Positions 40,304 to 64,000 of a stretch of 64,000 nt of DNA are shown here, in pieces. The translations under genes and the position numbers were made by a program. The DNA is from an uncultured Planctomycetota bacterium (GTDB lineage: Bacteria > Planctomycetota > Uabimicrobiia > Uabimicrobiales > JABWCH01): contig CAZPDM010000013.1 of the NCBI GenBank assembly GCA_964585305.1, positions 1 through 64,000 on the forward strand, given 5' to 3'. The notes beneath the pieces were generated by a model, which saw nothing but the letters and a program-made list of their open reading frames with translations, did not search any database and was not told the origin of the DNA. The first letter of the stretch is position 1, and each line of letters opens with the position of its first letter.

Positions 40304-40388
40304 AAAATTTAGATAATTCGCTATTGAGTCTTCTAGTGATTGATAAGCGCGAATTTTTTATCAAAAATTGGATATTAGGAAAAATTTT

Positions 40389-41300
40389 ATGAGAAATTAT
40401 CTTACTGGAATTCAAGTAGTAAATTGCACATCCTTAGAAGATGCCCTAAAAATAATGGCACAACCTACTCCACCAACTCCTTTAGCAGGTGGAACGGATA
40501 TTATGGTCAATCTAAATTTTAAAAAATTATCCGATGGTATTTATCTAAATTTACACAGTATTCCTGAACTTAAGAAAAATATTCGTATTACAAATAATGA
40601 AATTATTCTTTCAGCATTGACTACTTATACAGATGTAATCTATCATTCTTTTTTTCAAAATAAATATATTATTTTACCACAGGCTGCTGCTTCAGTTGGT
40701 TCAATGGGAATCCAAACCCGCGGAACTTGGGCTGGGAATATTATGAATGCTTCCCCTGCCGCGGATGGAGTTCCTGCATTGATGGTATATGATGCCCAGA
40801 TAGTTTTGATTTCTCAAAAGGGAGAAAGAATTATTCCTCTTTGCGAATTTTACCAGGGATATAAAAAAATGCAAAGGCTTCCAGATGAGTTAATCAAAGA
40901 AATCCGAATTCCTATTGTTGAGAATACAGGTTTTCAATATTTTCGCAAAGTTGGCGAACGTAAAGCACAAGCAATTGCAAAAGTAACATTAGCGGCAAGA
41001 ATTGTATTAGATCAAGAAGGTCGCGTTCAAAATAGCAGATTTATTTTCGGCAGTGTAATGCCATATAGTTATAGAATGTTAAATTTAGAAAAAATATTAG
41101 CCAATCGTTCTATTCACACAGAATTAGTTAGACAAGCAGTAGATGTTGTAGCTTACGATTTAAAACCTATCACCGATATTCGTTCAACAGCACATTATCG
41201 CCTTCGTGTAGCACAAAATCTTGTAGAAGAATTTTTGAATCAGACTTTGGAAAAATATAAATTTAGTACAGCAGAAACCCGAAGGATTCATTCTGTTTAG
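40389..41300 (+). CDS. FAD-binding medium subunit of a xanthine dehydrogenase / CO dehydrogenase-family enzyme (CoxM/XdhB-like)
   Basis: AGGTDIMV FAD-binding motif, CO-dehydrogenase flavoprotein-like C-terminal region. ATG at 40389 with an AGGAAAA RBS. Confidence 0.7.
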   Translation: MRNYLTGIQVVNCTSLEDALKIMAQPTPPTPLAGGTDIMVNLNFKKLSDGIYLNLHSIPELKKNIRITNNEIILSALTTYTDVIYHSFFQNKYIILPQAAASVGSMGIQTRGTWAGNIMNASPAADGVPALMVYDAQIVLISQKGERIIPLCEFYQGYKKMQRLPDELIKEIRIPIVENTGFQYFRKVGERKAQAIAKVTLAARIVLDQEGRVQNSRFIFGSVMPYSYRMLNLEKILANRSIHTELVRQAVDVVAYDLKPITDIRSTAHYRLRVAQNLVEEFLNQTLEKYKFSTAETRRIHSV

Positions 41301-41409
41301 TCAAGAGTTAAAGACTTCGGAATTTTCTTGCCGAAATTCTAATAAATTTGCGCTGCTTGTTAATCAAACAGCGCAAATTTATTGGTCTATCAATAAATAG
41401 GAGACTGCT

Positions 41410-42624
41410 ATGCAGCATATCTTTTCTAGATATATTCTTTTGTATATTCTTATTATTTGCAATATAGTAGGTTGCAGTTACTTTAATGTTATAGAACGAA
41501 GGAATGATGCTATCAATCCAGCAACTCCTCCTGAAGAGCTAATGAAACTTGCGAAAGATCGCGATATGTCTGTTCGCATTAAAGTAGCACAAAATGATAA
41601 TGCTACAGGTGATATTTTAGCTGTATTAGCAGTGGATGAAGACGAATATGTTCGTGAAGCAACAGCCAGCCATCCTAATATAAATACAGAATCCTTAGCT
41701 TTGATGGCGGCGGCTTCAGATATTACTCCAGAAATAAAATTGGCGATTGCTAGTAATCCTAATACGGATCGAAAAACTTTAGAAAAATTAGCAGAAGAAG
41801 CTGATCCTGAAATTAGAACAAAAGTAGCAGCCCATAATAATATTTCTTTAGAACTTTTAACAAAATTGGCTGAAGATGGTGAACCTTCTGTACGTGAACA
41901 AGTAGCATATCATGTTGATGTAACTCCAGAAATATTAGCAAAATTATCAGAAGATAGTAGTATTTGGGTTCGTACAGCTGTGGCAAAAAATCCTAAAGCA
42001 ACATTGCTTACTTTACAAAAATTATCTCAAGATCCAGATATTGGAATTCGAAGAGCTATTTTATATGCAAAACGTGAATATGTAAAAAGAGAAGACGCAT
42101 CAGGAAAAGATTTAGCTTTATTAGTAAATGATTCCGATGATGAAATTCGAATTTCTATTGCACGACATTCTAATACGCCAGAAAATATATTAGCTATTTT
42201 AGCTAATGATAGCAGTCCTTTTGTGCGGGAATCAATTGCTGCAAATCCACGCACTCCTTTAGAATACCTAGAAAAATTAACATTAGATCGTAATTCTAGT
42301 GTTCGTAGTCAAGCCTTAGCAAATCCCAATATTTCACCCAAGGCTACAAAAGATTATAAATTAGAAGGTGTTGACTATCGTTATGGATTAGCTGCTAATC
42401 CTAACACAATACCCCAAATATTATCCGAACTCGTTTTTGATTATCAAAAAAAAGTAAGATTGGCTGTTGCTAAGAATCCTAATACTCCTAGAGCAGCACT
42501 TGCACAATTAGCATTAGATTCTGAAAATGAAATTCGAGCTGCTGCTATGGCAAATCCAAATATTCCTAGTCTAGAGCGTATTCAAGAAGAAGCAAAACAA
42601 TTTCGAGTATCACAAGGAAAATAG
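41410..42624 (+). CDS. Lipoprotein made of HEAT/LRV-type (leucine-rich repeat variant) repeats
   Basis: Lipobox IVGC. At least 12 repeats of the type VRxxVAxNPNTPxExL. Confidence 0.55.
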   Translation: MQHIFSRYILLYILIICNIVGCSYFNVIERRNDAINPATPPEELMKLAKDRDMSVRIKVAQNDNATGDILAVLAVDEDEYVREATASHPNINTESLALMAAASDITPEIKLAIASNPNTDRKTLEKLAEEADPEIRTKVAAHNNISLELLTKLAEDGEPSVREQVAYHVDVTPEILAKLSEDSSIWVRTAVAKNPKATLLTLQKLSQDPDIGIRRAILYAKREYVKREDASGKDLALLVNDSDDEIRISIARHSNTPENILAILANDSSPFVRESIAANPRTPLEYLEKLTLDRNSSVRSQALANPNISPKATKDYKLEGVDYRYGLAANPNTIPQILSELVFDYQKKVRLAVAKNPNTPRAALAQLALDSENEIRAAAMANPNIPSLERIQEEAKQFRVSQGK

Positions 42625-52657: not shown

Positions 52658-52733
52658 TCCCCGGTAGCTCAACAGGCAGAGCGCGTGGCTGTTAACCACT
52701 AGGTTATAGGTTCAAGTCCTTTCCGGGGAGCCA
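52658..52733 (+). tRNA. tRNA-Asn (anticodon GTT), CCA encoded
   Basis: Manual cloverleaf: 7-bp acceptor stem TCCCCGG/CCGGGGA, D-arm GCTC..GAGC, anticodon loop CTGTTAA, T-loop TTCAAGT, discriminator G, CCA. Confidence 0.85.
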
Positions 52734-52740
52734 TCTATTT

Positions 52741-52813
52741 TCCCCGGTAGCTCAACAGGCAGAGCGCGTGGCTGTTAACCACTAGGTTATAGGTTCAAGT
52801 CCTTTCCGGGGAG
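52741..52813 (+). tRNA. tRNA-Asn (anticodon GTT), second identical copy, 3' CCA not encoded (CTA follows the discriminator)
   Basis: Body sequence identical to the first copy, 7 nt downstream of it. Confidence 0.85.
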
Positions 52814-52827
52814 CTAGAAAAAAATAT

Positions 52828-54683: not shown

Positions 54684-55286
54684 ATGCCTAAATTTTCTAA
54701 AAAAGTTAGAGAAATTGTTACGGAAAATATGCGAAAGATTATTCTCGAAAAAAGCAAAGAAATTATTATTCAAGATGGTTTAGAATCCATGACAATGGAA
54801 AAATTGGCTTGTGAAGCAGAGATTTCTATAGGCAGTATTTATAATTATTTTCGGAATAAAGAAGAAATCTGTATTGGTATAATGGAAAACGAATTTATGA
54901 GGCTGTTAAATAATGTTCAAGAGATAGCAAATATGAAATTACCTCCAGTAGAAAGACTATATAAACTGACTGTTTTTATGTTTGAGAATTTTTCTAAAGC
55001 CCGACGATTGCACGAAATTATCATGCACCATCTTCCTATTCCTAGAGAAAAAATTAAAGAAGGTCATAGGCAATTAGTCAATTATATTTCCAAGATTATA
55101 CAAGAAGGTATAGATGAAAAAATATTTGCTCCTGTAGAAGTGTACTTTGCAGTATCAGCATTTTTAGGAATTCTAAGAGAATTACAATTTGATCCGGGTG
55201 ATATGTTTAAAAATATATCTCCTAAAAAACAAGCAAAACGTGTATTAGAATTTTATCTTTCAGGAATAAAATATAAGGAATCATAA
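54684..55286 (+). CDS. TetR-family transcriptional regulator
   Basis: N-terminal HTH (MTMEKLACEAEISIGSIYNYFRNKEE), about 200 aa, directly upstream of the efflux pump genes. Confidence 0.75.
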   Translation: MPKFSKKVREIVTENMRKIILEKSKEIIIQDGLESMTMEKLACEAEISIGSIYNYFRNKEEICIGIMENEFMRLLNNVQEIANMKLPPVERLYKLTVFMFENFSKARRLHEIIMHHLPIPREKIKEGHRQLVNYISKIIQEGIDEKIFAPVEVYFAVSAFLGILRELQFDPGDMFKNISPKKQAKRVLEFYLSGIKYKES

Positions 55287-55288
55287 TA

Positions 55289-56662
55289 ATGATGAAAAAA
55301 ATTATGAAGTCTATATGGTTTTCTTTTTTTCTTTTTTTTATAGGTATTGTTGCTACAGTTATCTTAATAAAGACTGGGCCAAGTCCTCTTAAAACTCCAA
55401 TTTTAGAACAAGAACAAGTAGTCTCTGCGATAAAAGTTTCTCCTATAAATGTTATTCCCTGGATAATAGGGTATGGCGAAGCACAACCTGCAAGAACGTG
55501 GAAAGCCGTTTCCCAAGTAGGTGGAAAAATATCGTGGAAGTCTCCCAAATTGAAAAATGGAGAATTTTTTGAAGCAGGAGAATTGCTTCTATCTATAGAT
55601 GATAGTGAAATTAAATTAAAAATTCTATCCGCAGAAGCAACGATAAAGAAGATTCAAGCTAAAATGGAAGAATTGACAACGACTAAAACGAATATGATGT
55701 CTCAATTAGCAATTCTCAAAAGTATTCTAGAATTTCAGGAAAAAGAATTTAAACGCCAGCAATCACTATTGACTTCTAAGAGCGTATCTGTTGTAACGGT
55801 TGAAAATCAGGAAATAGCTGTATTACAACAACGTAATACTATAGATGGACTCGAGTCAAATTTAAGATTGCTTCCTTCTCAAATATCCTATCAGGAAGCA
55901 GAATTAGCTATAGCTCAAGCAGAGTTGGCACAAAGAAAATTAGAGTTAAATTATGCGAAAATATATGCACCATTTGATTGTAGAGTTGATAGTGCATCAG
56001 TAGAAGAACAACAATATGTTTCAATTGGACAAAATATGGTTACTGTTGATTCTATAGACGAAATGGAAATATTTCTGCAATTCAGAATGGAACAAATTGG
56101 ATTACTTTTTGCTCAACCTCCTAATAATGGAAATGGTATAGAGAAAATTTCTGAGGAAAAAAGAAAAGCAACTCCTCCGAATTGGAAAATTAGCGTTAAC
56201 ATTAGTGGATTGGCTAATTCATATTCTTGGCCAGGTCAATTTCGGCGTATTGCATCAGGCATAGATACTACAACACGTATGATAAGCATGATTGTTGGTG
56301 TTCAAGAACCCTATCGGCGGAATAATAAAATACTTGGTCCTCCTCTTGCTAAAGGTTCTTTTTGCACTGTTAAAATTGAAGGAAAAGAACAAGAAAATTT
56401 ACTAGTTCTTCCTCGCTATGCTATTCACGATGATAAGATATATATTGCAAATAAAGATTCCAGGCTGGAAATTGTTCCTATAAAAATAAATTATCATTTA
56501 GGACAATATGCGATTGTTGGGAAAGGATTAAATATTGGAGATTTAGTTATTCTTAATGATCTAGTTCCAGCAGTTTCAGGAATGAAACTTCAGCTTGTTA
56601 TGGATGAAAATTTTTATCAACAAGCAAATACTGAGCTTAGCGGAAAAGAGGTAGTAAAATGA
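55289..56662 (+). CDS. Efflux periplasmic adaptor (HlyD/membrane-fusion protein family)
   Basis: N-terminal TM anchor, coiled-coil hairpin region, beta-barrel-like C-terminus. Overlaps the RND gene start by 4 nt. Confidence 0.7.
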   Translation: MMKKIMKSIWFSFFLFFIGIVATVILIKTGPSPLKTPILEQEQVVSAIKVSPINVIPWIIGYGEAQPARTWKAVSQVGGKISWKSPKLKNGEFFEAGELLLSIDDSEIKLKILSAEATIKKIQAKMEELTTTKTNMMSQLAILKSILEFQEKEFKRQQSLLTSKSVSVVTVENQEIAVLQQRNTIDGLESNLRLLPSQISYQEAELAIAQAELAQRKLELNYAKIYAPFDCRVDSASVEEQQYVSIGQNMVTVDSIDEMEIFLQFRMEQIGLLFAQPPNNGNGIEKISEEKRKATPPNWKISVNISGLANSYSWPGQFRRIASGIDTTTRMISMIVGVQEPYRRNNKILGPPLAKGSFCTVKIEGKEQENLLVLPRYAIHDDKIYIANKDSRLEIVPIKINYHLGQYAIVGKGLNIGDLVILNDLVPAVSGMKLQLVMDENFYQQANTELSGKEVVK

Positions 56663-59600
56663 TCAGATATTTTATACGACATCCTACAGCCTCTAATTTG
56701 TTGATGATATTTTTTTTGATTTTAGGATTGTTAGTTTTAAGCCATATCAGACGAGCAGGTATGCCAGATTTTACTACAAATGCTTTACAAATTAGTGCTA
56801 ATTATCCTGGAGCTACTGCTGAAGAAATAGAAGAAGCCATTGCTGTTCCAATTGAAGACGCTCTTGGAAAAGTTAATAATATAAAAAAAATTACTACAAC
56901 TGCGATGGAAGGCATGGTTTCTATAACTGTTGAGTTGCTTGATAATGCTGACTATCAGGAAGTATACAATGATGTGAAGACTGAAGTTGATGCAATTACC
57001 TCTTTTCCTAATCAATTAGAAAAGCTCATTATTAAACCGCAAAATCGCTTGGATCAAATTATTAGTTTGGCAATTTATGGTGATTTATCAATAAATGATC
57101 TTAAGAGCTATTGCGAAGATTTTAAAGATAAATTGATGGAATTGGGAGGAGGCATTCAGGTTGAAGTTAGCGGATTTGCTCAACGTGAATTTCGAATAGA
57201 ATTATTACCCATAGCATTGCATACTTATAAACTTAGCATCAATACTATTGCTCAAATTATAATTAGTCAAAATATAGATTTGCCTTCCGGGACATTAGAA
57301 ACTGGAGAGCAAGATATTAAACTTCGTTTTAGCGATCGTCGCAAAACGATTCAAGATGTTTCTTCAATACGTGTTTTATCTAGCGCGTCTGGAGCTGAAA
57401 TATTATTGGGAGATATTGCAAAAATTAGTGAATGCTTTGAAGCAAACGAAAATAAAGTGTTGTTTAATGGCTATCGTGCTGGAATTTTAAGTGTTTCCAA
57501 AAGCAAAAGTGCTGACAGTTTGAAAATTTATGCTAAAGTAATGGCTTTATTAGAAGAAGAAAAGACAAAAGTTCCTTCTGGAATAAAATTTGCCATTACA
57601 AGAGATCGCGCTAGTGATATACAGGCCAGACTTAATATGGTATATTTAAATGCCTTTCAGGGATTTTTTTTAGTTTTTGCTGCCTTATGGTTATTTTTGA
57701 ATTTGAAACTTTCAATATGGGTATCTATGGGGTTGCCAGTATCATTTTTAGGCGGGCTTTTTATTATGCACATTTTTGGCATATCCCTTAATATGATTTC
57801 TACCTTTGCTTTGATCATTGCACTTGGTCTTATTATGGACGATGCTATTGTAATCGCTGAAAATATTGCGGTGCATCTTAAAAAAGGCGAATCCGCTTTT
57901 GATGCTGCTGTAAATGGTGTAAAAGAAATTGGAAATGGAGTTTGTTCAAGTTTTCTTACTACAATTTGTGTATTTGCTCCATTGATGTTTTTAAGTGGGC
58001 AAATAGGAAAAATTCTTTGCGTTATTCCTCTTACACTAACTATTATTTTATCAGTGAGTCTTTTCGAAGCCTTTTTTATTTTACCTAATCATTTATCTCA
58101 TTCTTTTAAAAATGGGATGCCCAAGGAAAATATTTATCGTAAAAAAATTGATCAATTTATTTCTTTTTTATCTTTAAATGTTGTAGAAAAATTGTGTAGA
58201 AATTTGGTTTCATATCGTTATTTATTTCTCACTAGTATACTAGTAATATTTATTTTTTCAGTTGGAATGTTTCCTGCGGGGTACTTAAAATTTTTAGTAT
58301 TTCCTAGTGTGGACAGCGATACGGCAGTATGCAAAGTTATGCTTGCGCCAGGAAGTTCGATGAAACAAAGTGAACGTGCTTCAGAGCAATTATGTAAAGC
58401 TGCGGAGCGAATGAATCAAATTCTAACTAAACGACAGCCGCAAGAAAAACAATTGGTAAAATTTGTCTCTGTCAATTTTAGTGCAAATTCTGATTACAGA
58501 GATAGTGGGGCACATCTTTTTACTGTTTATGTTGATTTGCTGGCTGGAGATGAAAGAAAAAGCACTTTAGATGAAATCCTTCATGTTTGGCGACAGGAAG
58601 CTGGAGATATTCCGGGAGCGTTGAGTATAAAATTTGAAGATATGGCAATGGGTCCTGGAGGAAAAGCCATTGAATTAAGATTGCACGGAAAAGATTTATC
58701 TGTTTTAAAACTAGCAGCAAGTGCTTTACGTAGCAAACTTTCTTCGTATTCTGGAGTTTTTGATGTAACGGATAGTATGACGTTAGGAAAACCTGAAATT
58801 GTAATGTCTTTAAAACCTGGTGCATTAAAACTTGGGTTTACTGCTACAAATATAGCTCAACAATTAAGAGCCGCATACCAAGGCGAAAAGGCTGATGAAT
58901 TACAAATTGGAAGCGATAATTATGAATTTAATGTTAAGATGGCTTATAATATTTCAGAGAATTTATATAACTTTGATAATTTTCAATTAACAACTTCAAC
59001 AGGTATTAAAGTCCCCTTGCTGAATGTAGTTAATTTACGATATGCTCGCGGACTTTCCAGTATCAATCGATATAATAGTAAACGTACAGTAACAGTTTCT
59101 GCAAATGTCAACGATGCTATCGCAAATGCGCAAGATGTTTGTAACGATTTAACAAAAAATTATTTTCCTGACTTTGTAAAAAAATATCCTAGTATTACCT
59201 ATTCTTTTGGCGGGCAAGTTGAAGCAGGAAGTGAAACCGGTAGCTCTATGGGACAGGCTTTTCTCATAGGAATTATTGGTATTTTTATTATTCTGTCGCT
59301 ACAATTTGGAACTTTTATTGAACCGTTAATTGTGATGGCTACTATTCCATTGTCGATAATTGGAATTGTTTGGGGACATATTTTATTTGGCAGATCCTTT
59401 GATATGCAAGGCGTAATTGGAATGGTTTCCCTTGCAGGGATTGTGGTGAACAATTCAATTTTGTTAATGGATTTTATTAAAATGCGTGAGGCAGAAGGAA
59501 TGATTCCTCAAGAGGCAGCATGTAAAGCCTCCAGCGATAGATTCCGTCCAATTATGTTGACTAGCTTGACTACGATTGCAGGCTTATTGCCAATTCTTTC

Positions 59601-59745
59601 GGAAAAGAGCTTGCAAGCACAAATGGTAATTCCTCTTGCTTTAACTATAGTATGTGGGTTGCTCACATCAACTTTGTTAGTGCTATTTGTTACTCCCTCA
59701 TTATATCTAGTAGTACAGGATTTTCGTTCATTTATGAAAAAATGA
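56659..59745 (+). CDS. RND-superfamily efflux permease (AcrB/CzcA-like)
   Basis: 1028 aa, 12-TM topology with two large periplasmic loops. Conserved TM4-region motif (ALGLIMDDAIVIAENI). Confidence 0.85.
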   Translation: MIRYFIRHPTASNLLMIFFLILGLLVLSHIRRAGMPDFTTNALQISANYPGATAEEIEEAIAVPIEDALGKVNNIKKITTTAMEGMVSITVELLDNADYQEVYNDVKTEVDAITSFPNQLEKLIIKPQNRLDQIISLAIYGDLSINDLKSYCEDFKDKLMELGGGIQVEVSGFAQREFRIELLPIALHTYKLSINTIAQIIISQNIDLPSGTLETGEQDIKLRFSDRRKTIQDVSSIRVLSSASGAEILLGDIAKISECFEANENKVLFNGYRAGILSVSKSKSADSLKIYAKVMALLEEEKTKVPSGIKFAITRDRASDIQARLNMVYLNAFQGFFLVFAALWLFLNLKLSIWVSMGLPVSFLGGLFIMHIFGISLNMISTFALIIALGLIMDDAIVIAENIAVHLKKGESAFDAAVNGVKEIGNGVCSSFLTTICVFAPLMFLSGQIGKILCVIPLTLTIILSVSLFEAFFILPNHLSHSFKNGMPKENIYRKKIDQFISFLSLNVVEKLCRNLVSYRYLFLTSILVIFIFSVGMFPAGYLKFLVFPSVDSDTAVCKVMLAPGSSMKQSERASEQLCKAAERMNQILTKRQPQEKQLVKFVSVNFSANSDYRDSGAHLFTVYVDLLAGDERKSTLDEILHVWRQEAGDIPGALSIKFEDMAMGPGGKAIELRLHGKDLSVLKLAASALRSKLSSYSGVFDVTDSMTLGKPEIVMSLKPGALKLGFTATNIAQQLRAAYQGEKADELQIGSDNYEFNVKMAYNISENLYNFDNFQLTTSTGIKVPLLNVVNLRYARGLSSINRYNSKRTVTVSANVNDAIANAQDVCNDLTKNYFPDFVKKYPSITYSFGGQVEAGSETGSSMGQAFLIGIIGIFIILSLQFGTFIEPLIVMATIPLSIIGIVWGHILFGRSFDMQGVIGMVSLAGIVVNNSILLMDFIKMREAEGMIPQEAACKASSDRFRPIMLTSLTTIAGLLPILSEKSLQAQMVIPLALTIVCGLLTSTLLVLFVTPSLYLVVQDFRSFMKK

Positions 59746-59766: not shown

Positions 59767-59806
59767 CACTTAGCAAGAAATTTCAGAATCTGAATTTCTT
59801 GCTAAG
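59767..59806 (+). terminator. 14-bp inverted repeat (CTTAGCAAGAAATT / AATTTCTTGCTAAG) between the RND gene and the sigma-54 regulator gene; terminator or operator-like
   Basis: Perfect palindromic arms. The downstream T-tract is weak. Confidence 0.4.
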
Positions 59807-59827: not shown

Positions 59828-61243
59828 ATGGAACCAGAAATAATGGTGTGTAAATTAAAAAAAGAACCAAATACTCAAAATAAATCGAAAAGTCATCTAA
59901 GTACAGCTAACGCTAATGCTATTTTACAAAGTATTTCTGATGGTGTGTTTACTGTTGATACCAATTGGAAAGTAACTTCTTTCAATCGAGCTGCTGAAGA
60001 AATTACAGGAATTTCACCAAGCGAAGCTATAGGAAAATATTGTTTTGAAGTCTTTCGATCTAGTATGTGTGAAACAGAATGTGCATTGCGTAAGACATTA
60101 GAAACAGGAAATCCTATTGTTAATAAATCATGTTTTATTATTGACGCTCAAGGAAACCATATTCCAATTAGTGTATCTACAGCTGTACTTAAAGATGATG
60201 AAGGAAATATAATTGGAGGAGCAGAGACATTTCGTGATCTAAGCGATGTAGAAGACTTACGTAAAAAGGTAGAAGGTATTTTTAAAATTGGAGATATTAT
60301 TAGTCGTAGTCATACTATGAAAAAGGTATCTGTTATTTTACCTTCGATTGCAGCTAGTGATAGTACTGTTCTTATTCAAGGGGAAACTGGAACTGGAAAA
60401 GAACTTTTGGCTCGCGCAATTCATTATTCAGGAAGACGTAAGGAAAAACCTTTTATTGCCATAAATTGTGGAGCATTACCAGATACTCTTTTAGAATCCG
60501 AGCTATTTGGTTATAAAGCAGGAGCATTTACTGGAGCAAACAAAGATAAGCCTGGACGTTTTGCCTTAGCAGAAGGCGGAACATTATTTCTGGATGAAAT
60601 TGGAGAAATCAGCCAAATGCTTCAAGTAAAGTTGCTTCGAGTTCTGCAAGAAAAAAATTATGATCCACTTGGTGCAACTCAATCTGCAAAAGCTGATGTA
60701 AGGATTGTTGCCGCGACTCATAAAGATATTTATTCTTTAGTTAAACAAGGCCTTTTTAGAGAAGACTTGTTTTATCGTATTCACGTAATTAGAATTGATC
60801 TTCCTCCACTAAGAGAAAGAAAAGAAGATATTCCTTTATTACTTGATCATTTTATTGCAAAATTTAATAAAATCCAACGTAAAAATATTGCAGGGATAAC
60901 TCAAGAATCTCTTGCTTTGCTTATGTCTTACAATTGGCCTGGTAATATTAGAGAATTAGAAAATTTTATTGAACGGGCATTTATTCTTTGTTCTGAGGGA
61001 ATGATTGAACCAAAACATTTGTCAGAAAATTTTAGTTACTCGGAGACTAAAGTTCTAGTCTCACCATTTCATATTTCCGCTATTAAGCAAACGATTGAAG
61101 CAGAGGCAATTTTAGAAGCTTTAAAAAGAAATAATTTCAATCGTTTGGCGGCTGCAAAAGAATTGGGAATTCATAAAAGTACGTTTTTTCGTAAAATTAA
61201 ATCATTAGGAATATCTCTTCCTTCTAAACAAGAAGAAAACTAA
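59828..61243 (+). CDS. Sigma-54-dependent transcriptional activator (PAS sensor + AAA+ sigma-54 interaction + Fis-type HTH; no receiver domain)
   Basis: PAS-like N-terminus. Walker A GETGTGKE, GAFTGA motif (GYKAGAFTGA), Walker B LFLDEIGE. C-terminal HTH (NRLAAAKELGIHKSTFFRKIK). The start is uncertain (TTG at 59813 or ATG at 59828). Confidence 0.85.
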   Translation: MEPEIMVCKLKKEPNTQNKSKSHLSTANANAILQSISDGVFTVDTNWKVTSFNRAAEEITGISPSEAIGKYCFEVFRSSMCETECALRKTLETGNPIVNKSCFIIDAQGNHIPISVSTAVLKDDEGNIIGGAETFRDLSDVEDLRKKVEGIFKIGDIISRSHTMKKVSVILPSIAASDSTVLIQGETGTGKELLARAIHYSGRRKEKPFIAINCGALPDTLLESELFGYKAGAFTGANKDKPGRFALAEGGTLFLDEIGEISQMLQVKLLRVLQEKNYDPLGATQSAKADVRIVAATHKDIYSLVKQGLFREDLFYRIHVIRIDLPPLRERKEDIPLLLDHFIAKFNKIQRKNIAGITQESLALLMSYNWPGNIRELENFIERAFILCSEGMIEPKHLSENFSYSETKVLVSPFHISAIKQTIEAEAILEALKRNNFNRLAAAKELGIHKSTFFRKIKSLGISLPSKQEEN

Positions 61244-61245
61244 AG

Positions 61246-61272
61246 GACTAAGTTACACTTAGTCTTTTTTTT
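61246..61272 (+). terminator. Rho-independent terminator after the sigma-54 activator gene (GACTAAG-ttaca-CTTAGTC + T8)
   Basis: 7-bp stem followed by 8 T. Confidence 0.75.
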
Positions 61273-61362
61273 GCTACTTAAATAAAAAAATGAGTCGCAT
61301 TTTTGCGACTTATATAATTTGAATTACTTGATAAAATCAGCTTTCTACCGATTTATTTTATA

Positions 61363-61378
61363 TGGCATACATTTTGCT
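61363..61378 (+). promoter_or_regulatory. Sigma-54 (-24/-12) promoter: TGGCAT-ACATT-TTGCT
   Basis: The GG and GC dinucleotides are separated by exactly 10 nt, matching the TGGCAC-N5-TTGCW consensus. It lies about 105 nt upstream of the first NifX-like gene and directly downstream of a sigma-54 activator. Confidence 0.6.
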
Positions 61379-61484
61379 AGTTAAATGCTAATTAAAATAG
61401 AAGTGCGAGAATGTACCATCTTTTTAGAAGTGGTATTCGAAAAAATAATTTTATAACCGTTATTTTCGAGATAGGGGGAATTCT

Positions 61485-61859
61485 GTGAAAGTCGCCATTA
61501 CAATTTGGAATGAGCATATTTCTCCTGTTTTTGATGTATGTAAAAAAATGCTTATTTTAGATATTCAGGATAAGAAGATTATTTCGCAAAGAGAAGAAAA
61601 TTTTATTGATGACGATCCTTTAAAAAAAATATCTCAATTAAGTTATTTTTCTATTCATACATTGATTTGTGGGGCAATATCAAAAAACTTAGCCGATGAA
61701 CTTTCTTCTTTAAATATCAAAATTATCCCTTTTATCTCTGGAAAAATAGAAAATGTTATTTTCGCTTATATTTCCGACCAATTATTAGAAAGTTCTTTTC
61801 TTATGCCAGGATGCAGGAAGAGATGCCAAAGGCGAAAAAGAAATTGTTGTAAAAAATAA
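61485..61859 (+). CDS. NifX/NifB-like (dinitrogenase FeMo-cofactor family fold) small protein with Cys/Arg-rich C-terminal tail
   Basis: MKVAITIWNEHISPVFDVCKKMLILDI...LICGAISKNLADELSSLNIKIIP fits the NifX-like single-domain pattern. C-terminal PGCRKRCQRRKRNCCKK. Confidence 0.5.
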   Translation: MKVAITIWNEHISPVFDVCKKMLILDIQDKKIISQREENFIDDDPLKKISQLSYFSIHTLICGAISKNLADELSSLNIKIIPFISGKIENVIFAYISDQLLESSFLMPGCRKRCQRRKRNCCKK

Positions 61860-61883
61860 AAAAAATTTTTGAAAGGAAATGTT

Positions 61884-62174
61884 ATGCCAGGAAAAAATGG
61901 AATGGGTCCTAATGGATTAGGGCCAATGACAGGACGTGCTGCTGGATATTGTGCAAGAAATCATAATTTGGGGCAATTCGGATTTCAAGGGAGAAGGCGA
62001 AATTGTTTTTGTCAAAATAATATTCCAGGCTGGAGATGGGCAAATCAAAATATTCCACCAAATGTTGAATACGAAAAAAATTATTTAACAATACAAGCTC
62101 AGGAAATAGAAAAACAGTTATCTCAAATTAAAAATCGTCTATCTGAAATAGAATCTGCTGAAAAGCAAAAATAA
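61884..62174 (+). CDS. DUF5320-like small protein (Gly/Pro-rich N-terminus, C-terminal coiled-coil)
   Basis: MPGKNGMGPNGLGPMTGRAAGYCAR resembles the DUF5320 N-terminal signature (MPrgDGTGPmGmGPmTGRgaGyC). The ATG at 61884 has an AAAGGA RBS. Confidence 0.5.
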   Translation: MPGKNGMGPNGLGPMTGRAAGYCARNHNLGQFGFQGRRRNCFCQNNIPGWRWANQNIPPNVEYEKNYLTIQAQEIEKQLSQIKNRLSEIESAEKQK

Positions 62175-62204
62175 TAAAGACTACAAAGACAAAGGAGTCT
62201 AAGC

Positions 62205-62561
62205 GTGAAAATTGCGTTTACTACATCTGGAATAACTTTGAAAGATTCTTTAGATCCTCGTTTTGGACGTGCTCCTAAATTTTTGATTTATGATTTGGAA
62301 AATAATGTTTTTGATATAATAGATAATCAAAAAAATTTAAATGCAGCACAGGGAGCTGGTATACAATCTGCGGAAACAATAGTCAAGGCAGGTGTTAATG
62401 CTCTGGTTACTGGACATTGCGGACCAAAAGCATTTCGTGTTCTTTCTACAGCAGGAATTACTATTTATAACACAGATGCTACTACCATTGATCTTGCTCT
62501 AGATCAATTCCGATCTGGCAAACTTAATCAAGTTACATCTGCTAATGCTGAAGGACACTAG
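62205..62561 (+). CDS. NifX/NifB-like (dinitrogenase FeMo-cofactor family) domain protein
   Basis: MKIAFTTSGITLKDSLDPRFGRAPKFLIYDLEN...NALVTGHCGPKAFRVLSTAGITIYN is a canonical NifX/NafY-like pattern. GTG start with an AAAGGAG RBS. Confidence 0.75.
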   Translation: MKIAFTTSGITLKDSLDPRFGRAPKFLIYDLENNVFDIIDNQKNLNAAQGAGIQSAETIVKAGVNALVTGHCGPKAFRVLSTAGITIYNTDATTIDLALDQFRSGKLNQVTSANAEGH

Positions 62562-62563
62562 GA

Positions 62564-63403
62564 ATGCTTATTTCCGTAGCTTCAGGCAAAGGCGGCACTG
62601 GAAAAACAACAGTATCTGTTAATTTAGCTAGGATACTTGAAAATGTACAACTCCTAGATTGTGATGTCGAGGAACCAAATGCAAACTTATTTCTTAAAGG
62701 AAATATAACTAAACAGGAAACTGTTACAGTTTCTATTCCTGAAATTGATAAAAATATTTGTAATTTTTGCGGAGAATGTAGCAAATTTTGCCAATATAAT
62801 GCAATAGTTTCTCTTCAGCAAATGATTCTTATATTTACTGAGCTTTGTCATAGTTGTGGGGGGTGTTTAAAAGCTTGCCCTAATAAAGCCATTCGAGAAG
62901 TTGAAAAACGTATTGGGGTGGTTAAAACTTTAGAATCAAATAATATTACTCTGGTGCAAGGTAGTATTGATGTGGGAGTAGCAATGGTAACACCTGTTAT
63001 TAAAGCGGTTAAAAAACTTGCCCAAAATAAAATAGTAATACTTGATGCGCCACCAGGAACTTCTTGCCCTGTAATTACAACAATAGAAGGTTCAGACTTT
63101 GTAGTATTAGTTACCGAACCTACTCCCTTCGGAATGAATGATCTTAAATTGGCTGTAGAAATGGTAAAGAAAATAGATATTCCTTTTGGCATAGTCATCA
63201 ATCGCTTGGGAATTGGTGATGATAGAATCCATGTATTTTGTAAACAGCAGAATATTCCCATTCTTTTAGAAATTCCTGACGATCGTAGAATTGCTCAGGC
63301 TTATTCCAGGGGAGAAATTATAGTAGATTCTTTACCAGAATATAGAAATTATTTTGAAAACCTTTGGAAAAAAATTGTAGAATTACAAAAGAAGTCCATC
63401 TAA
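62564..63403 (+). CDS. MinD/ParA-superfamily P-loop ATPase with an inserted double [4Fe-4S] ferredoxin-like domain
   Basis: Deviant Walker A SGKGGTGKTT. Two CxxCxxCxxxCP motifs (CNFCGECSKFCQ; CHSCGGCLKACP). Confidence 0.75.
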   Translation: MLISVASGKGGTGKTTVSVNLARILENVQLLDCDVEEPNANLFLKGNITKQETVTVSIPEIDKNICNFCGECSKFCQYNAIVSLQQMILIFTELCHSCGGCLKACPNKAIREVEKRIGVVKTLESNNITLVQGSIDVGVAMVTPVIKAVKKLAQNKIVILDAPPGTSCPVITTIEGSDFVVLVTEPTPFGMNDLKLAVEMVKKIDIPFGIVINRLGIGDDRIHVFCKQQNIPILLEIPDDRRIAQAYSRGEIIVDSLPEYRNYFENLWKKIVELQKKSI

Positions 63404-63428
63404 AGTTAATGAATAAAGGGAATATAAA

Positions 63429-63680
63429 ATGCCAATTTATGAATATGAATGTAGTTCATGTGGTTTTAAATTTGAACGACAACAGAGTATGACAGATGCT
63501 CCAATTAGAGAATGCCCAGAATGCAAAGGTGAAGTTAAAAAAATTGTGAGTGGCGGTTCTGGTTTTATTTTCAAAAATTCTGGACAAAAAAATGGGCATA
63601 GTTGTTCTTTAGAATCGACAGGAAGAACTTGTTGCGGCAGAGAAAATCGCTGCGACAGTTCACCGTGTGGAAAAAACTAA
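63429..63680 (+). CDS. FmdB-family zinc-ribbon protein with Cys-rich C-terminus
   Basis: MPIYEYECSSCGFKFE...CPECKG, and additional Cys residues at the C-terminus. Confidence 0.65.
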   Translation: MPIYEYECSSCGFKFERQQSMTDAPIRECPECKGEVKKIVSGGSGFIFKNSGQKNGHSCSLESTGRTCCGRENRCDSSPCGKN

Positions 63681-63755
63681 ATTTTGTCAAAGATGGTCTA
63701 ATAGAAATAGATCAGCATTTTTATTTGATCAAAAGATAGAAAAAAAGGTAGAATT

Positions 63756-64000
63756 ATGAATGAATTGCGAACACAAATAAAAGAATTTGTGATTATTAGT
63801 GGAAAAGGAGGAACTGGTAAAACTAGTTTAACTGCGGCATTTGCTGCTCTTGCAAATCATCCTGTTATTGTAGATTGTGATGTGGATGCTGCAGATTTGC
63901 ATCTTATACTTTTGCCTCAAATTAAAAAATTGTATGAATTTCGCAGTGGACATGAAGCAACAATTCGTCAGGAAGATTGTGTTAAATGTGGAGATTGTTT
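63756..64000 (+). CDS. Second MinD/ParA-type ATPase with ferredoxin-like insertion (3'-truncated by the window edge)
   Basis: ISGKGGTGKTS deviant Walker A. CVKCGDC at the window edge begins a 4Fe-4S motif. Confidence 0.7.
   Translation, partial: MNELRTQIKEFVIISGKGGTGKTSLTAAFAALANHPVIVDCDVDAADLHLILLPQIKKLYEFRSGHEATIRQEDCVKCGDC

Follow-up and report, generated by a model that had tools for sequence, protein, structure and literature searches.

What does a compact run of genes for NifX-like, zinc-ribbon and MinD-type proteins do, and to which signal does the sigma-54 activator encoded in front of it respond? The region lies at the end of the stretch of DNA analyzed here (64,000 nucleotides; the window), whose host is AT-rich (34% GC). 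What the window locus itself shows, namely its genes and their orthology, its motifs, and its promoter and operator, points to an orp locus (orange protein complex) accompanied by OrpR, the activator dedicated to it, an assignment that we regard as very probable. An initial annotation held that the gene set has no assigned function. This needs correcting in that the set has been studied as the orp cluster of Desulfovibrio vulgaris Hildenborough (DvH; PMC3897727, PMC6345978, PMC8359166), but it stands in that a 2021 paper describes what the Orp proteins do physiologically as "still unclear". The elements described earlier, a PAS sigma-54 activator without a receiver domain, a terminator, a -24/-12 promoter and six co-oriented genes, are all present, and Pfam/NCBIfam matches back the families that had been called (NifX-like twice, DUF5320, MinD-ferredoxin twice, FmdB):

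59828-61243, + strand: orpR-like gene for a sigma-54 enhancer-binding protein (EBP; PAS, AAA+ and HTH_8; Pfam, homology to OrpR)
60041-60082, + strand: codons of the PAS Cys triad and acidic residue, C-F-E-V-F-R-S-S-M-C-E-T-E-C, spaced as in DvH OrpR
60521-60538, + strand: GAFTGA loop of the AAA+ domain, the sigma-54 contact, as read from the sequence
61242-61272, + strand: intrinsic-terminator-like hairpin (12 pairs, loop of 3) with T-run, at the predicted end of the orpR transcript
61293-61310, no strand: predicted OrpR operator (UAS), the perfect palindrome AGTCGCA-TTTT-TGCGACT (7+4+7), from shuffles, recurrence and the DvH site
61363-61378, + strand: sigma-54 promoter TGGCATacattTTGCT, TGGCAT-N5-TTGCT (GG at 61364-61365, GC at 61376-61377)
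61485-61859, + strand: Orp7-like gene with a divergent NifX/Nitro_FeMo-Co domain (PF02579, 4.5e-7)
61884-62174, + strand: DUF5320 protein gene (PF17253, 1.2e-19)
62205-62561, + strand: ORP/Orp8 orthologue (orange protein; Nitro_FeMo-Co domain, PF02579, 7.7e-23)
62564-63403, + strand: MinD-type P-loop ATPase gene with an inserted 2x[4Fe-4S] ferredoxin domain (Orp4-like; Pfam, alignment)
63429-63680, + strand: FmdB-family zinc ribbon gene (TIGR02605, 1.5e-19)
63756-64000, + strand: 5' part of a second MinD-ferredoxin ATPase gene (Orp3-like; Pfam/NCBIfam), cut by the window end

The genes of the operon are separated by gaps of 2-75 bp. Comparison with a DvH-type locus (L151), valid as a reference since both the C52/D54/C61/C65 numbering and the GAFTDA loop known from publications are found in it, gave identities of 48% for OrpR (439 aa, E 1e-149), 46% for Orp8, 38% for Orp4 (first MinD-ferredoxin ATPase of each locus) and 28% for the gene in the Orp7 position, the last including an MPGC motif and the tail that follows it. 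Four of the six DvH orp genes thus have clear counterparts in the window. The DUF5320 protein, which probably starts at ATG 61884 (MPGKNG...), has three Cys residues and a coiled-coil-like C-terminal segment, and its gene occupies the same position in many related loci. It is possibly the Orp5 counterpart, a candidate assignment made from sequence; blastp against the L151 Orp5 candidate gave 23.5 bits in a low-complexity region, and a Pfam search of that candidate returned no domain match. An Orp9/MrpORP gene would sit beyond the window end.

The product of 62205-62561 has as its top PDB match the orange protein of D. (Megalodesulfovibrio) gigas (2wfb; 1.2e-18, residues 2-110), which is similarly long and has the same single Nitro_FeMo-Co domain. 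The same domain, present in both small proteins, also occurs in NifX/NafY carriers, and the first MinD-ferredoxin ATPase gives weak Fer4_NifH and HypA-type matches. The operon could therefore be an accessory part of nitrogenase or hydrogenase cofactor maturation, with NifX/NafY-type carriers and NifH-like ATPases, its main genes lying elsewhere or just downstream, where the contig runs on for another 4 kb past the window. We consider this extremely unlikely. The score for the nifX model TIGR02663 is 17.7, far short of its cut-off (112), the closest match of known structure is ORP rather than NifX, and no nif or hydrogenase-maturation (hyp) gene was found among the larger window ORFs scanned, in line with the absence of nitrogenase noted before.

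The surroundings of related genes argue in the same direction. Among 81 related loci, the window gene order is repeated in L004, L010 and L018, in L002 without a regulator on its contig, and with changes in L011 and L029. In at least L002, L004 and L010, what comes after the second MinD-ferredoxin gene is an Mrp/NUBPL gene and not nif/hyd genes; the downstream Mrp of the closest relatives has no Di-Nase domain, the defining feature of MrpORP. A gene for an Mrp/NBP35-type Fe-S carrier probably lies just past the window end. The cluster retains the same core form in many lineages, archaea included, which further disfavors a maturation accessory and bears out the earlier remark that the set recurs in anaerobic bacteria and archaea.

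The start of the orpR-like gene is ambiguous (TTG 59813, ATG 59828 or ATG 59843); the start at 59843 gives 466 aa, the length nearest to the closest homologues. Pfam analysis revealed PAS (PF13426, 1.6e-13), Sigma54_activat (1.4e-68), AAA_lid_14 and HTH_8 domains but no receiver domain, the same PAS-AAA+-HTH_8 arrangement as in OrpR (DVU2106), and none of the NCBIfam EBP equivalogs reaches its own cut-off. The PAS domain features a C-x-E-x6-C-x3-C pattern (Cys codons 60041, 60068 and 60080; Glu codon 60047), that is, C-x8-C-x3-C with Glu at +2, which is identical in spacing and in its acidic +2 residue to DvH OrpR (C52/D-or-E54/C61/C65). In DvH OrpR the three PAS cysteines hold a [4Fe-4S] cluster that senses redox potential, and the protein stays bound to DNA (PMC8359166). 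By analogy, the triad, which 19 of the 21 EBPs linked to the cluster retain (window counted), is predicted to provide the ligands of a redox-sensing [4Fe-4S] cluster. Because the window activator is an OrpR orthologue with the same triad, its signal is most likely redox potential, and not an unknown one as had been supposed for a PAS-only sensor. Such a regulator is not unusual either, as it adjoins orp genes in 20 of the 81 loci. NifA-type regulation likewise has a sigma-54 EBP with an N-terminal sensor gating the AAA+ domain, but the NifA sensor is a GAF domain whereas that of the window regulator is a PAS domain predicted to hold an Fe-S cluster. The window protein differs from DvH OrpR in its canonical GAFTGA loop, which is GAFTDA in DvH (PMC4641369), and falls into a subgroup with a VFRSSMC signature common to MAGs labelled Ignavibacteria and Holophagales.

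Between orpR and the operon, the centre of the 61293-61310 palindrome lies 61 bp upstream of the promoter TGG, at about -87 from the inferred start site. The initial annotation had overlooked this palindrome. Its core, TCGCA-N4-TGCGA, is found at a single place in the window and in none of 100 shuffles; operators of this class appear in 0.5% of shuffles of the window spacer and in 11 of the 21 EBP-linked spacers. We predict from the sequence that it is the OrpR operator. The published DvH site (GGGCGYRTTTTGCGCCC; at -88 for orp2) shares the GCA...TGC core, although its spacer is one base shorter (7+3+7 against 7+4+7) and its outer bases differ (GGGCGCA against AGTCGCA). The window has one full operator site, while two or three are frequent in DvH-type and Smithella loci. 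The promoter is the only exact match to TGGCAY-N5-TTGCW on both strands of the 64 kb, where about 0.25 would be expected by chance (about 5e-4 in the 244-bp spacer), and equivalent sigma-54 promoters are found in 15 of 20 related EBP-linked spacers. An IHF site had no support beyond chance level in the window, and rpoN was not found among its scanned larger ORFs.

The palindrome could instead be a second, bidirectional terminator next to a fortuitous -24/-12 match, in which case a sigma-70 promoter, or transcription continuing out of orpR, would drive the operon. The terminator scan does list it as terminator-like on the minus strand, and one exact promoter match per 128 kb is not significant alone (at least one in 23 of 100 shuffles). 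However, no minus-strand gene runs into the palindrome, and palindromes in the same register and with the same core recur upstream of orthologous operons despite differing flanks and match the experimentally defined DvH site. Promoter, operator and adjacent EBP gene follow the same order in many loci, and sigma-70 promoter signals in the region are at chance (15 found, 17.4 expected), which makes this explanation very unlikely.

The first MinD-ferredoxin ATPase features a deviant Walker A motif (SGKGGTGKT) and two CxxCxxCxxxC motifs (Cys66/69/72/76 and Cys95/98/101/105) that are invariant in 20 sequences. For the second, the window stops where the first CxxCxxC begins, but full-length counterparts occupy the matching place in L001, L002, L004, L010 and others. 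The FmdB protein between them has a conserved Cys-rich C-terminal module (C-S-x-E-x2-G-x-T-C-C-G-x4-C-x4-C) and recurs in the cluster (13 sequences, plus L082/L084).

ATPases of this type could place the septum of anaerobes in what would primarily be a cell-division or positioning system, the metal clusters acting only as redox switches. This was the original proposal for the DvH ORP complex, which is labelled "putatively involved in cell division" in the literature; OrpR inactivation in DvH reportedly causes morphological defects, MrpORP has been localized at the poles, and archaeal MinD proteins are the closest solved structures to the first ATPase. Against this, the MinD models score far under their cut-offs (TIGR01969, 65 against 201.75; TIGR01968, 30.5 against 212.9), the cluster has neither minC nor minE, all other products are small metal- or cluster-binding proteins, and the 2021 authors stress the Fe-S nature of the Orp proteins. 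We therefore judge a primary division function unlikely; a link to cell division of the kind put forward for DvH is possible, though an indirect one.

The Orp7-like protein has a conserved MPGC motif followed by a basic, Cys-rich tail (MPGCRKRCQRRKRNCCKK) in the family alignment, and thereby resembles IssA, in which the same domain and a cationic tail bind an anionic Fe-S polymer (PMC5524996). In an IssA-type device for iron-sulfur or thiometallate storage and detoxification under sulfidic, reduced conditions, NifX-fold proteins with cationic tails would sequester thioferrate or thiomolybdate-copper. The domain (IPR003731/PF02579) is present twice, MTH1175 (PDB 1eo1), the second-best PDB match of the window ORP, falls inside the IssA clade, ORP binds [S2MoS2CuS2MoS2]3- non-covalently (literature), the proposed chemistry is likewise the binding of anionic metal-sulfide species, and sulfidic conditions would fit expression limited to low redox potential. 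Nevertheless, the tails here are about 20 aa and Cys-rich whereas IssA tails are long and Gly/aromatic-rich, the Orp7-like gene sits within an ATPase-containing operon, a set of two Fe-S ATPases with an Mrp carrier is more suggestive of transfer than of storage, and there is no nanoparticle evidence for Orp proteins. Storage as the main role is thus improbable.

Most likely, the Orp proteins assemble into a complex that uses ATP to bind and pass on anionic metal-sulfide clusters (Fe-S, Mo/Cu-S), and the earlier guess of metallocluster trafficking or maturation appears right. Complex composition and Fe-S transfer by MrpORP have been described in DvH, from which redox sensing, Fe-S binding and complex formation are carried over here by analogy; cluster handling is put forward as a hypothesis. 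By orthology to the DvH system, we propose for the window locus a regulatory mechanism in which orpR would be transcribed alone, ending at its own terminator, and OrpR would bind AGTCGCA-N4-TGCGACT, some 87 bp before the point where transcription starts. At low redox potential, with a PAS [4Fe-4S] cluster held by Cys77, Cys86 and Cys90 and Glu79 nearby (numbered from the TTG start), OrpR would be on, and ATP hydrolysis by its AAA+ domain, through the GAFTGA loop, would open the sigma-54 promoter. As the potential rises, the cluster would be oxidized or lost and the PAS domain would block activation without release from DNA. A single mRNA would encode oxygen-labile metalloproteins, namely the Orp7-like, DUF5320 and ORP/Orp8 proteins, two MinD-type ATPases with two [4Fe-4S] sites each, FmdB and probably the Mrp/NBP35-type carrier, so that synthesis of the complex would be confined to cells reduced enough to let metal-sulfide clusters survive.

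The window locus is a further copy of the described ORP metalloprotein gene cluster with OrpR, and mostly known biology. As in DvH orp1/orp2 (DVU2103-DVU2109; Fievet 2011; PMC3897727, PMC6345978), it combines ORP/Orp8, two 2x[4Fe-4S] MinD-type ATPases, an Orp7-like protein of the NifX fold that carries MPGC and a Cys/basic tail, an adjoining dedicated activator gene, and a sigma-54 promoter preceded, at nearly the same distance, by a palindromic activator site (-87 here, -88 for orp2). Three aspects are modestly new. The orp genes are collinear in a single operon downstream of orpR with a single full operator, whereas in DvH two divergent operons, each with its operator, flank orpR. A conserved Cys-rich FmdB protein, absent from the listed ORP subunits, is encoded between the two ATPase genes. 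Finally, a published statement restricts OrpR to delta-Proteobacteria (PMC8359166), but Cys-triad OrpR proteins are also present in MAGs that carry the labels of non-delta-proteobacterial phyla.

The locus is a real gene cluster, but a further member of an already known system, the orp (ORP) genes described in Desulfovibrio vulgaris Hildenborough (DvH). The ORF list from the raw sequence contains seven co-oriented plus-strand genes between approximately 59.8 kb and the window end, with gaps of 2–75 bp, in keeping with the small, closely spaced genes of the initial annotation, and each of its domain calls was borne out by Pfam and NCBIfam.

Genes of the locus
Plus strand: activator gene; PAS (PF13426, 1.6e-13), Sigma54_activat (1.4e-68), AAA_lid_14 and HTH_8 domains, receiver domain absent (Pfam)
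61485–61859, plus strand: NifX-like protein with Cys tail; Nitro_FeMo-Co match weak, above threshold; C-terminus MPGCRKRCQRRKRNCCKK
Plus strand: DUF5320 protein (1.2e-19); real start probably ATG 61884, giving MPGKNGMGP
62205–62561, plus strand: ORP/Orp8-like protein; Nitro_FeMo-Co (PF02579, 7.7e-23)
62564–63403, plus strand: MinD-Fer1 (Orp4-like); CbiA/ParA P-loop ATPase with two 4Fe-4S motifs (CxxCxxCxxxC)
63429–63680, plus strand: FmdB zinc ribbon (TIGR02605, 1.5e-19)
From 63756, plus strand: MinD-Fer2 (Orp3-like); MinD-type ATPase, Walker A seen, window ending as the first CxxCxxC begins

The larger ORFs scanned in the window include no nitrogenase, as had been claimed, and no hydrogenase-maturation or rpoN genes; on its upstream side the locus is bordered by an efflux unit of TetR-MFP-RND type and by housekeeping genes unrelated to it. 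The interval from the RND pump stop codon (59745) to orpR holds a perfect 14 bp inverted repeat (CTTAGCAAGAAATT / AATTTCTTGCTAAG; 59769–59806), with arms 10 nt apart and no T-run directly after it; the repeat may terminate transcription of the TetR-MFP-RND unit (54684–59745) or serve as an operator.

Elsewhere in the window, which has a GC content of 33.9%, two tRNA-Asn(GTT) genes stand in tandem 8 bp apart (52658–52814), and two adjoining PMT_2-type glycosyltransferase paralogues of about 600 aa each (10189–12006 and 12111–13919, minus strand) lie beside a 1402 aa beta-propeller-repeat protein (14730–18938). At 40368–42624 the gene for a molybdopterin dehydrogenase FAD-binding subunit (xanthine dehydrogenase/CODH family) precedes one for a leucine-rich-repeat-variant/HEAT protein, with no large Mo subunit noticed in the vicinity. 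Weak T9SS-sortase-like matches occur among the window proteins. All window proteins checked are singletons at 90% identity; an identical FmdB gene is present on a 975 bp ENA contig (L205, sample ERZ27237243). For EttA, the closest relatives with a name are Planctomycetota, at 69–71% identity; the lineage is sparsely sampled.

In DvH, two divergent sigma-54 operons (DVU2105–2103 and DVU2107–2109) lie on either side of DVU2106, which encodes the regulator OrpR, and the ORP complex comprises the MinD-type ATPases Orp3 and Orp4 (two [4Fe-4S] motifs each), Orp5 (a small Fe-S protein of the DVU2105 type), Orp8 (ORP) and Orp9 (MrpORP, in which an Mrp/NBP35 domain is combined with a Di-Nase domain) (PMC3897727, PMC6345978). 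The window encodes a single-domain Nitro_FeMo-Co protein of the ORP/Orp8 type (62205–62561), whose best solved-structure match is 2wfb, the D. gigas orange protein (1.2e-18). It also encodes two paralogous MinD-type ATPases, the first complete and the second partial, with full-length second copies in relatives, and an Orp7 (DVU2107-type) protein, recognized by its match to the DvH-type comparison locus L151 and by MPGC in the family alignment. [quoted passage not shown] The layout differs from that of DvH, being a collinear single operon with one operator rather than two divergent operons flanking orpR.

Other assignments were considered and rejected. A NifX/NafY nitrogenase cofactor carrier would be expected to score far higher than the 17.7 bits obtained with TIGR02663 nifX (cut-off 112), and nif genes are absent among the scanned window ORFs. 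For a septum-site-determining MinD ATPase, scores were 65 against a cut-off of 201.75 (TIGR01969) and 30.5 against 212.9 (TIGR01968), and the cluster has neither minC nor minE. The full MrpORP model (NF041136, cut-off 450) is matched only in parts, with 19–54 bits for the window proteins.

A metagenome scan with the published DvH operator gave mostly chance matches in GC-rich DNA, and the only orp loci that it returned were L151, L152, L173 and L191. L151 has two operator sites 1.65 kb apart with the gene for a sigma-54 enhancer-binding protein (EBP) between them, and its layout is divergent: Orp7, ORP and Mrp+Di-Nase genes lie to one side, a small ORF and then MinD-Fer to the other. Its regulator, read from MALPRDIP..., has Cys exactly at positions 52, 61 and 65, Asp at 54 and the GAFTDA loop listed for DVU2106. 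This residue numbering, loop and layout qualify L151 as a DvH-type reference for the window proteins.

Blastp comparison of window proteins with L151
OrpR with L151 OrpR: 48% over 439 aa, E 1e-149
ORP with L151 Orp8: 46% over 118 aa
MinD-Fer1 with L151 Orp4: 38% over 296 aa
NifX-like protein with Cys tail, with the gene in the L151 Orp7 position: 28% over 92 aa, including MPGC and the Cys/basic tail
DUF5320 protein with the ORF in the L151 Orp5 position: weak, 23.5 bits, in a Gly-rich low-complexity region

The ORF in the L151 Orp5 position begins MPYGDGTGPFG, as DUF5320 proteins do. A Pfam search with it gave zero families and the blastp match is weak and of low complexity, so that DUF5320 is only a candidate equivalent of Orp5.

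The window regulator has the architecture of OrpR, with PAS, AAA+ (Sigma54_activat) and HTH_8 domains and no receiver (Pfam). DvH OrpR is a PAS-AAA+-HTH enhancer-binding protein whose binding site, the palindrome GGGCGYRTTTTGCGCCC, lies upstream of each of the two operons; its PAS domain carries a redox-sensitive [4Fe-4S] cluster that needs C52, C61 and C65 and has a conserved Asp/Glu at 54, and the protein activates only at low redox potential, the oxidized form remaining bound to DNA (PMC8359166). The signal of the window regulator had been called unknown; for its orthologue OrpR there is a published answer, redox potential (PMC8359166). In the window PAS domain (CFEVFRSSMCETEC) the stretch C-F-E-V-F-R-S-S-M-C-E-T-E-C gives C-x8-C-x3-C with Glu two residues past the first Cys, the same spacing as C52/D-or-E54/C61/C65 of DvH OrpR and as in L151. 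In the AAA+ domain the loop reads GAFTGA, the canonical form, and not the GAFTDA listed for DVU2106 (PMC4641369). This loop and a VFRSSMC signature are common to the window and to Cys-triad regulators beside orp genes in three comparison loci (L001, L008 and L028); the GAFTDA variant is a lineage trait and not a functional requirement.

Among the matches listed, 20 loci have 21 OrpR-like EBPs by the cluster, which with the window makes 21 loci and 22 regulators, 21 of them analysable. Of these 21, window included, 19 have the Cys triad and an Asp or Glu at +2. The OrpR paper describes the regulator as seemingly restricted to delta-Proteobacteria (PMC8359166), whereas Cys-triad OrpR proteins stand beside orp genes in MAGs labeled Ignavibacteria, Acidobacteriota/Holophagales, Planctomycetota and Vulcanimicrobiota (labels from record titles), which suggests that, in this comparison set and with MAG labels as given, OrpR is phylogenetically broader than published.

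The spacer between the activator gene and the operon contains the following predicted elements.

61242–61268, plus strand: terminator-like hairpin and T-run after the activator gene
61293–61310: predicted OrpR operator AGTCGCATTTTTGCGACT, perfect palindrome AGTCGCA-TTTT-TGCGACT
61363, plus strand: predicted sigma-54 -24/-12 promoter TGGCATacattTTGCT, the only exact TGGCAY-N5-TTGCW match in the window

The hairpin and the exact promoter match agree with the terminator and -24/-12 promoter of the initial annotation. Since approximately 0.25 exact matches are expected by chance on both strands of the whole window, the promoter is persuasive by its position rather than by its bare existence; sigma-54 control is indicated by this correctly placed, predicted consensus element with an EBP gene adjoining it. 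The operator core occurs once in 64 kb and in none of 100 shuffles, and a palindrome of the operator class appears in 0.5% of shuffles of this spacer. Its center lies 61 bp upstream of the promoter TGG, at about -87 from the inferred start, compared with -88 for the site of DvH orp2 (PMC3897727, PMC6345978). Compared with the DvH site, the GCA/TGC core is the same and the spacer is one base longer. The regulator gene adjoins orp genes, with a related palindrome upstream of a predicted sigma-54 promoter in the register of the orthologous loci. The window differs from DvH in having only one full operator site. A GCTACT half-site at 61271–61276, just upstream of it and overlapping the terminator T-run, matches the right half of the L001, L008 and L028 operators exactly and could be a weak second OrpR site.

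In most loci the regulator–operon spacer has a consensus -24/-12 element, and upstream of this element are perfect palindromes of the class xxxGC-N5/6-GCxxx.

Operator variants
GTCGC-N6-GCGAC: window, Smithella, Syntrophaceae
GTAGC-N6-GCTAC: L001, Holophagales
ATTGC-N5/6-GCAAT: Planctomycetes, Vulcanimicrobiota, Desulfobacteraceae

A candidate IHF site (AATCAGCTTTCTA at 61335) resembling the DvH IHF half-site was dropped as evidence because such matches are at or below chance in AT-rich DNA (222 one-mismatch WATCAR-N4-TTR matches against about 285 expected). The predicted stability of the leader of about 95 nt does not exceed that of shuffled sequences (z -0.42), and an Rfam search gave nothing above noise.

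Window proteins were mapped onto L001 and onto a comparison set of at least 80 loci, which were drawn from species-representative genomes with the very conserved MinD-Fer as anchor; the best match has 64% identity among the matches listed. The cluster recurs across genomes, as the initial annotation had claimed, including Smithella/Syntrophaceae and archaea. The order OrpR, Orp7-like, DUF5320, ORP, MinD-Fer, FmdB, MinD-Fer, Mrp/NUBPL is exact in L004, L010 and L018 (Smithella/Syntrophaceae). Its structural-gene part is found in an unclassified Deltaproteobacteria MAG (L002), on a contig from which the regulator is absent; the order is modified in L011 (unclassified bacterial MAG) and L029 (Planctomycetales MAG), and L008 (Ignavibacteria) has it only in part. 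Because relatives carry a downstream Mrp/NUBPL P-loop gene (PF10609, about 1e-102) without a Di-Nase domain, the window operon most likely continues past base 64000, where an Orp9/MrpORP counterpart would lie, with the rest of MinD-Fer2 and then an Mrp-type carrier. L151, in contrast to these relatives, has Mrp plus Nitro_FeMo-Co. In L004 (Smithella MAG, 14440–15729) the P-loop gene closing the orp-like operon encodes NifU_N fused to Mrp/NUBPL and lacks Di-Nase.

The core of ORP and two MinD-Fer genes occurs without an EBP in Bathyarchaeia, Methanocellaceae, Methanohalophilus and Thermoplasmatota. The Desulfovibrio-like loci closest to D. gigas ORP (L082, L083 and L084) have no OrpR-type regulator beside the cluster; L082 and L083 have a DUF134 protein and an unannotated 112 aa protein upstream (6942–7355 in L082). 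Cluster regulation therefore differs among lineages. In L082 and L083 the two ATPase genes are also followed by one NifX-like and one FmdB gene, and downstream of the cluster L084 encodes, on the other strand, a sigma-54 EBP with a receiver domain. A literature search linking DUF5320 or DUF134 with NifX/MinD found nothing relevant, and a Methanococcus thiomolybdate paper was set aside as a precedent since it concerns other genes than this set.

The FmdB zinc ribbon is recurrent in the cluster, its position varying between loci, and its C-terminal module C-S-x-E-x2-G-x-T-C-C-G-x4-C-x4-C is strongly conserved across several phyla (window, L002, L004, L007, L008, L010, L011, L018, L023, L026, L029, L065 and L066). 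Conservation of these cysteines points to a further site for a metal or cluster. FmdB is not among the ORP-complex subunits in the ORP papers examined, and the comparison set suggests that the orp cluster is accompanied by a Cys-rich FmdB protein. In the Orp7-like family MPGC is conserved and followed by a basic tail, and the MinD-Fer family alignment has invariant Cys33 (DCD), Cys168 (PPGTSCP) and Cys226 besides the eight ferredoxin cysteines; these three may be ligands of an additional, for example dimer-bridging, cluster.

A regulatory scheme is proposed, with good support from orthology to DvH OrpR, where OrpR would occupy the palindrome at 61293–61310 and, at low redox potential with the PAS [4Fe-4S]2+ cluster intact, would drive open complex formation at the sigma-54 promoter; oxidation would disable activation. 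From their sequences, the encoded proteins are predicted to be Fe-S ATPases and small proteins that bind Fe-S or metal-sulfide. In DvH the Orp proteins form a complex and MrpORP is able to transfer Fe-S clusters to them, and ORP binds an anionic Mo-Cu-sulfide cluster non-covalently (PMC3897727, PMC6345978). In IssA the same fold, with a cationic tail added, binds anionic thioferrate (PMC5524996). Our preferred reading is that the products would form an ATP-dependent complex, made under reducing conditions only, that holds and transfers anionic metal-sulfide clusters. A storage role like that of IssA is a live rival; a role in cell division, a hypothesis from the literature, is likewise a live rival to the transfer complex that we prefer. 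We put forward tentatively, as a joint proposal, that control of orp operons by the Fe-S PAS domain of OrpR is a widespread anaerobe module extending beyond delta-Proteobacteria and that FmdB, with its invariant T-C-C-G-x4-C-x4-C tail, is an unrecognized metal-binding component or maturation factor of ORP.

The ORP system is one of few widely conserved, anaerobe-specific metalloprotein clusters without a known cellular role. The window locus adds little by itself. What is modestly new is the collinear single operon with its lone full operator, the GAFTGA subgroup, FmdB as a conserved, Cys-rich partner and, by MAG labels, OrpR outside delta-Proteobacteria. The published regulatory design, that is, the Fe-S PAS sensor, the GCA/TGC palindrome at about -87 and the sigma-54 promoter (all predicted here), is kept whole in a distant AT-rich lineage with a simpler single-operon layout, and the breadth of OrpR together with the FmdB partner would help define the minimal ORP machinery.
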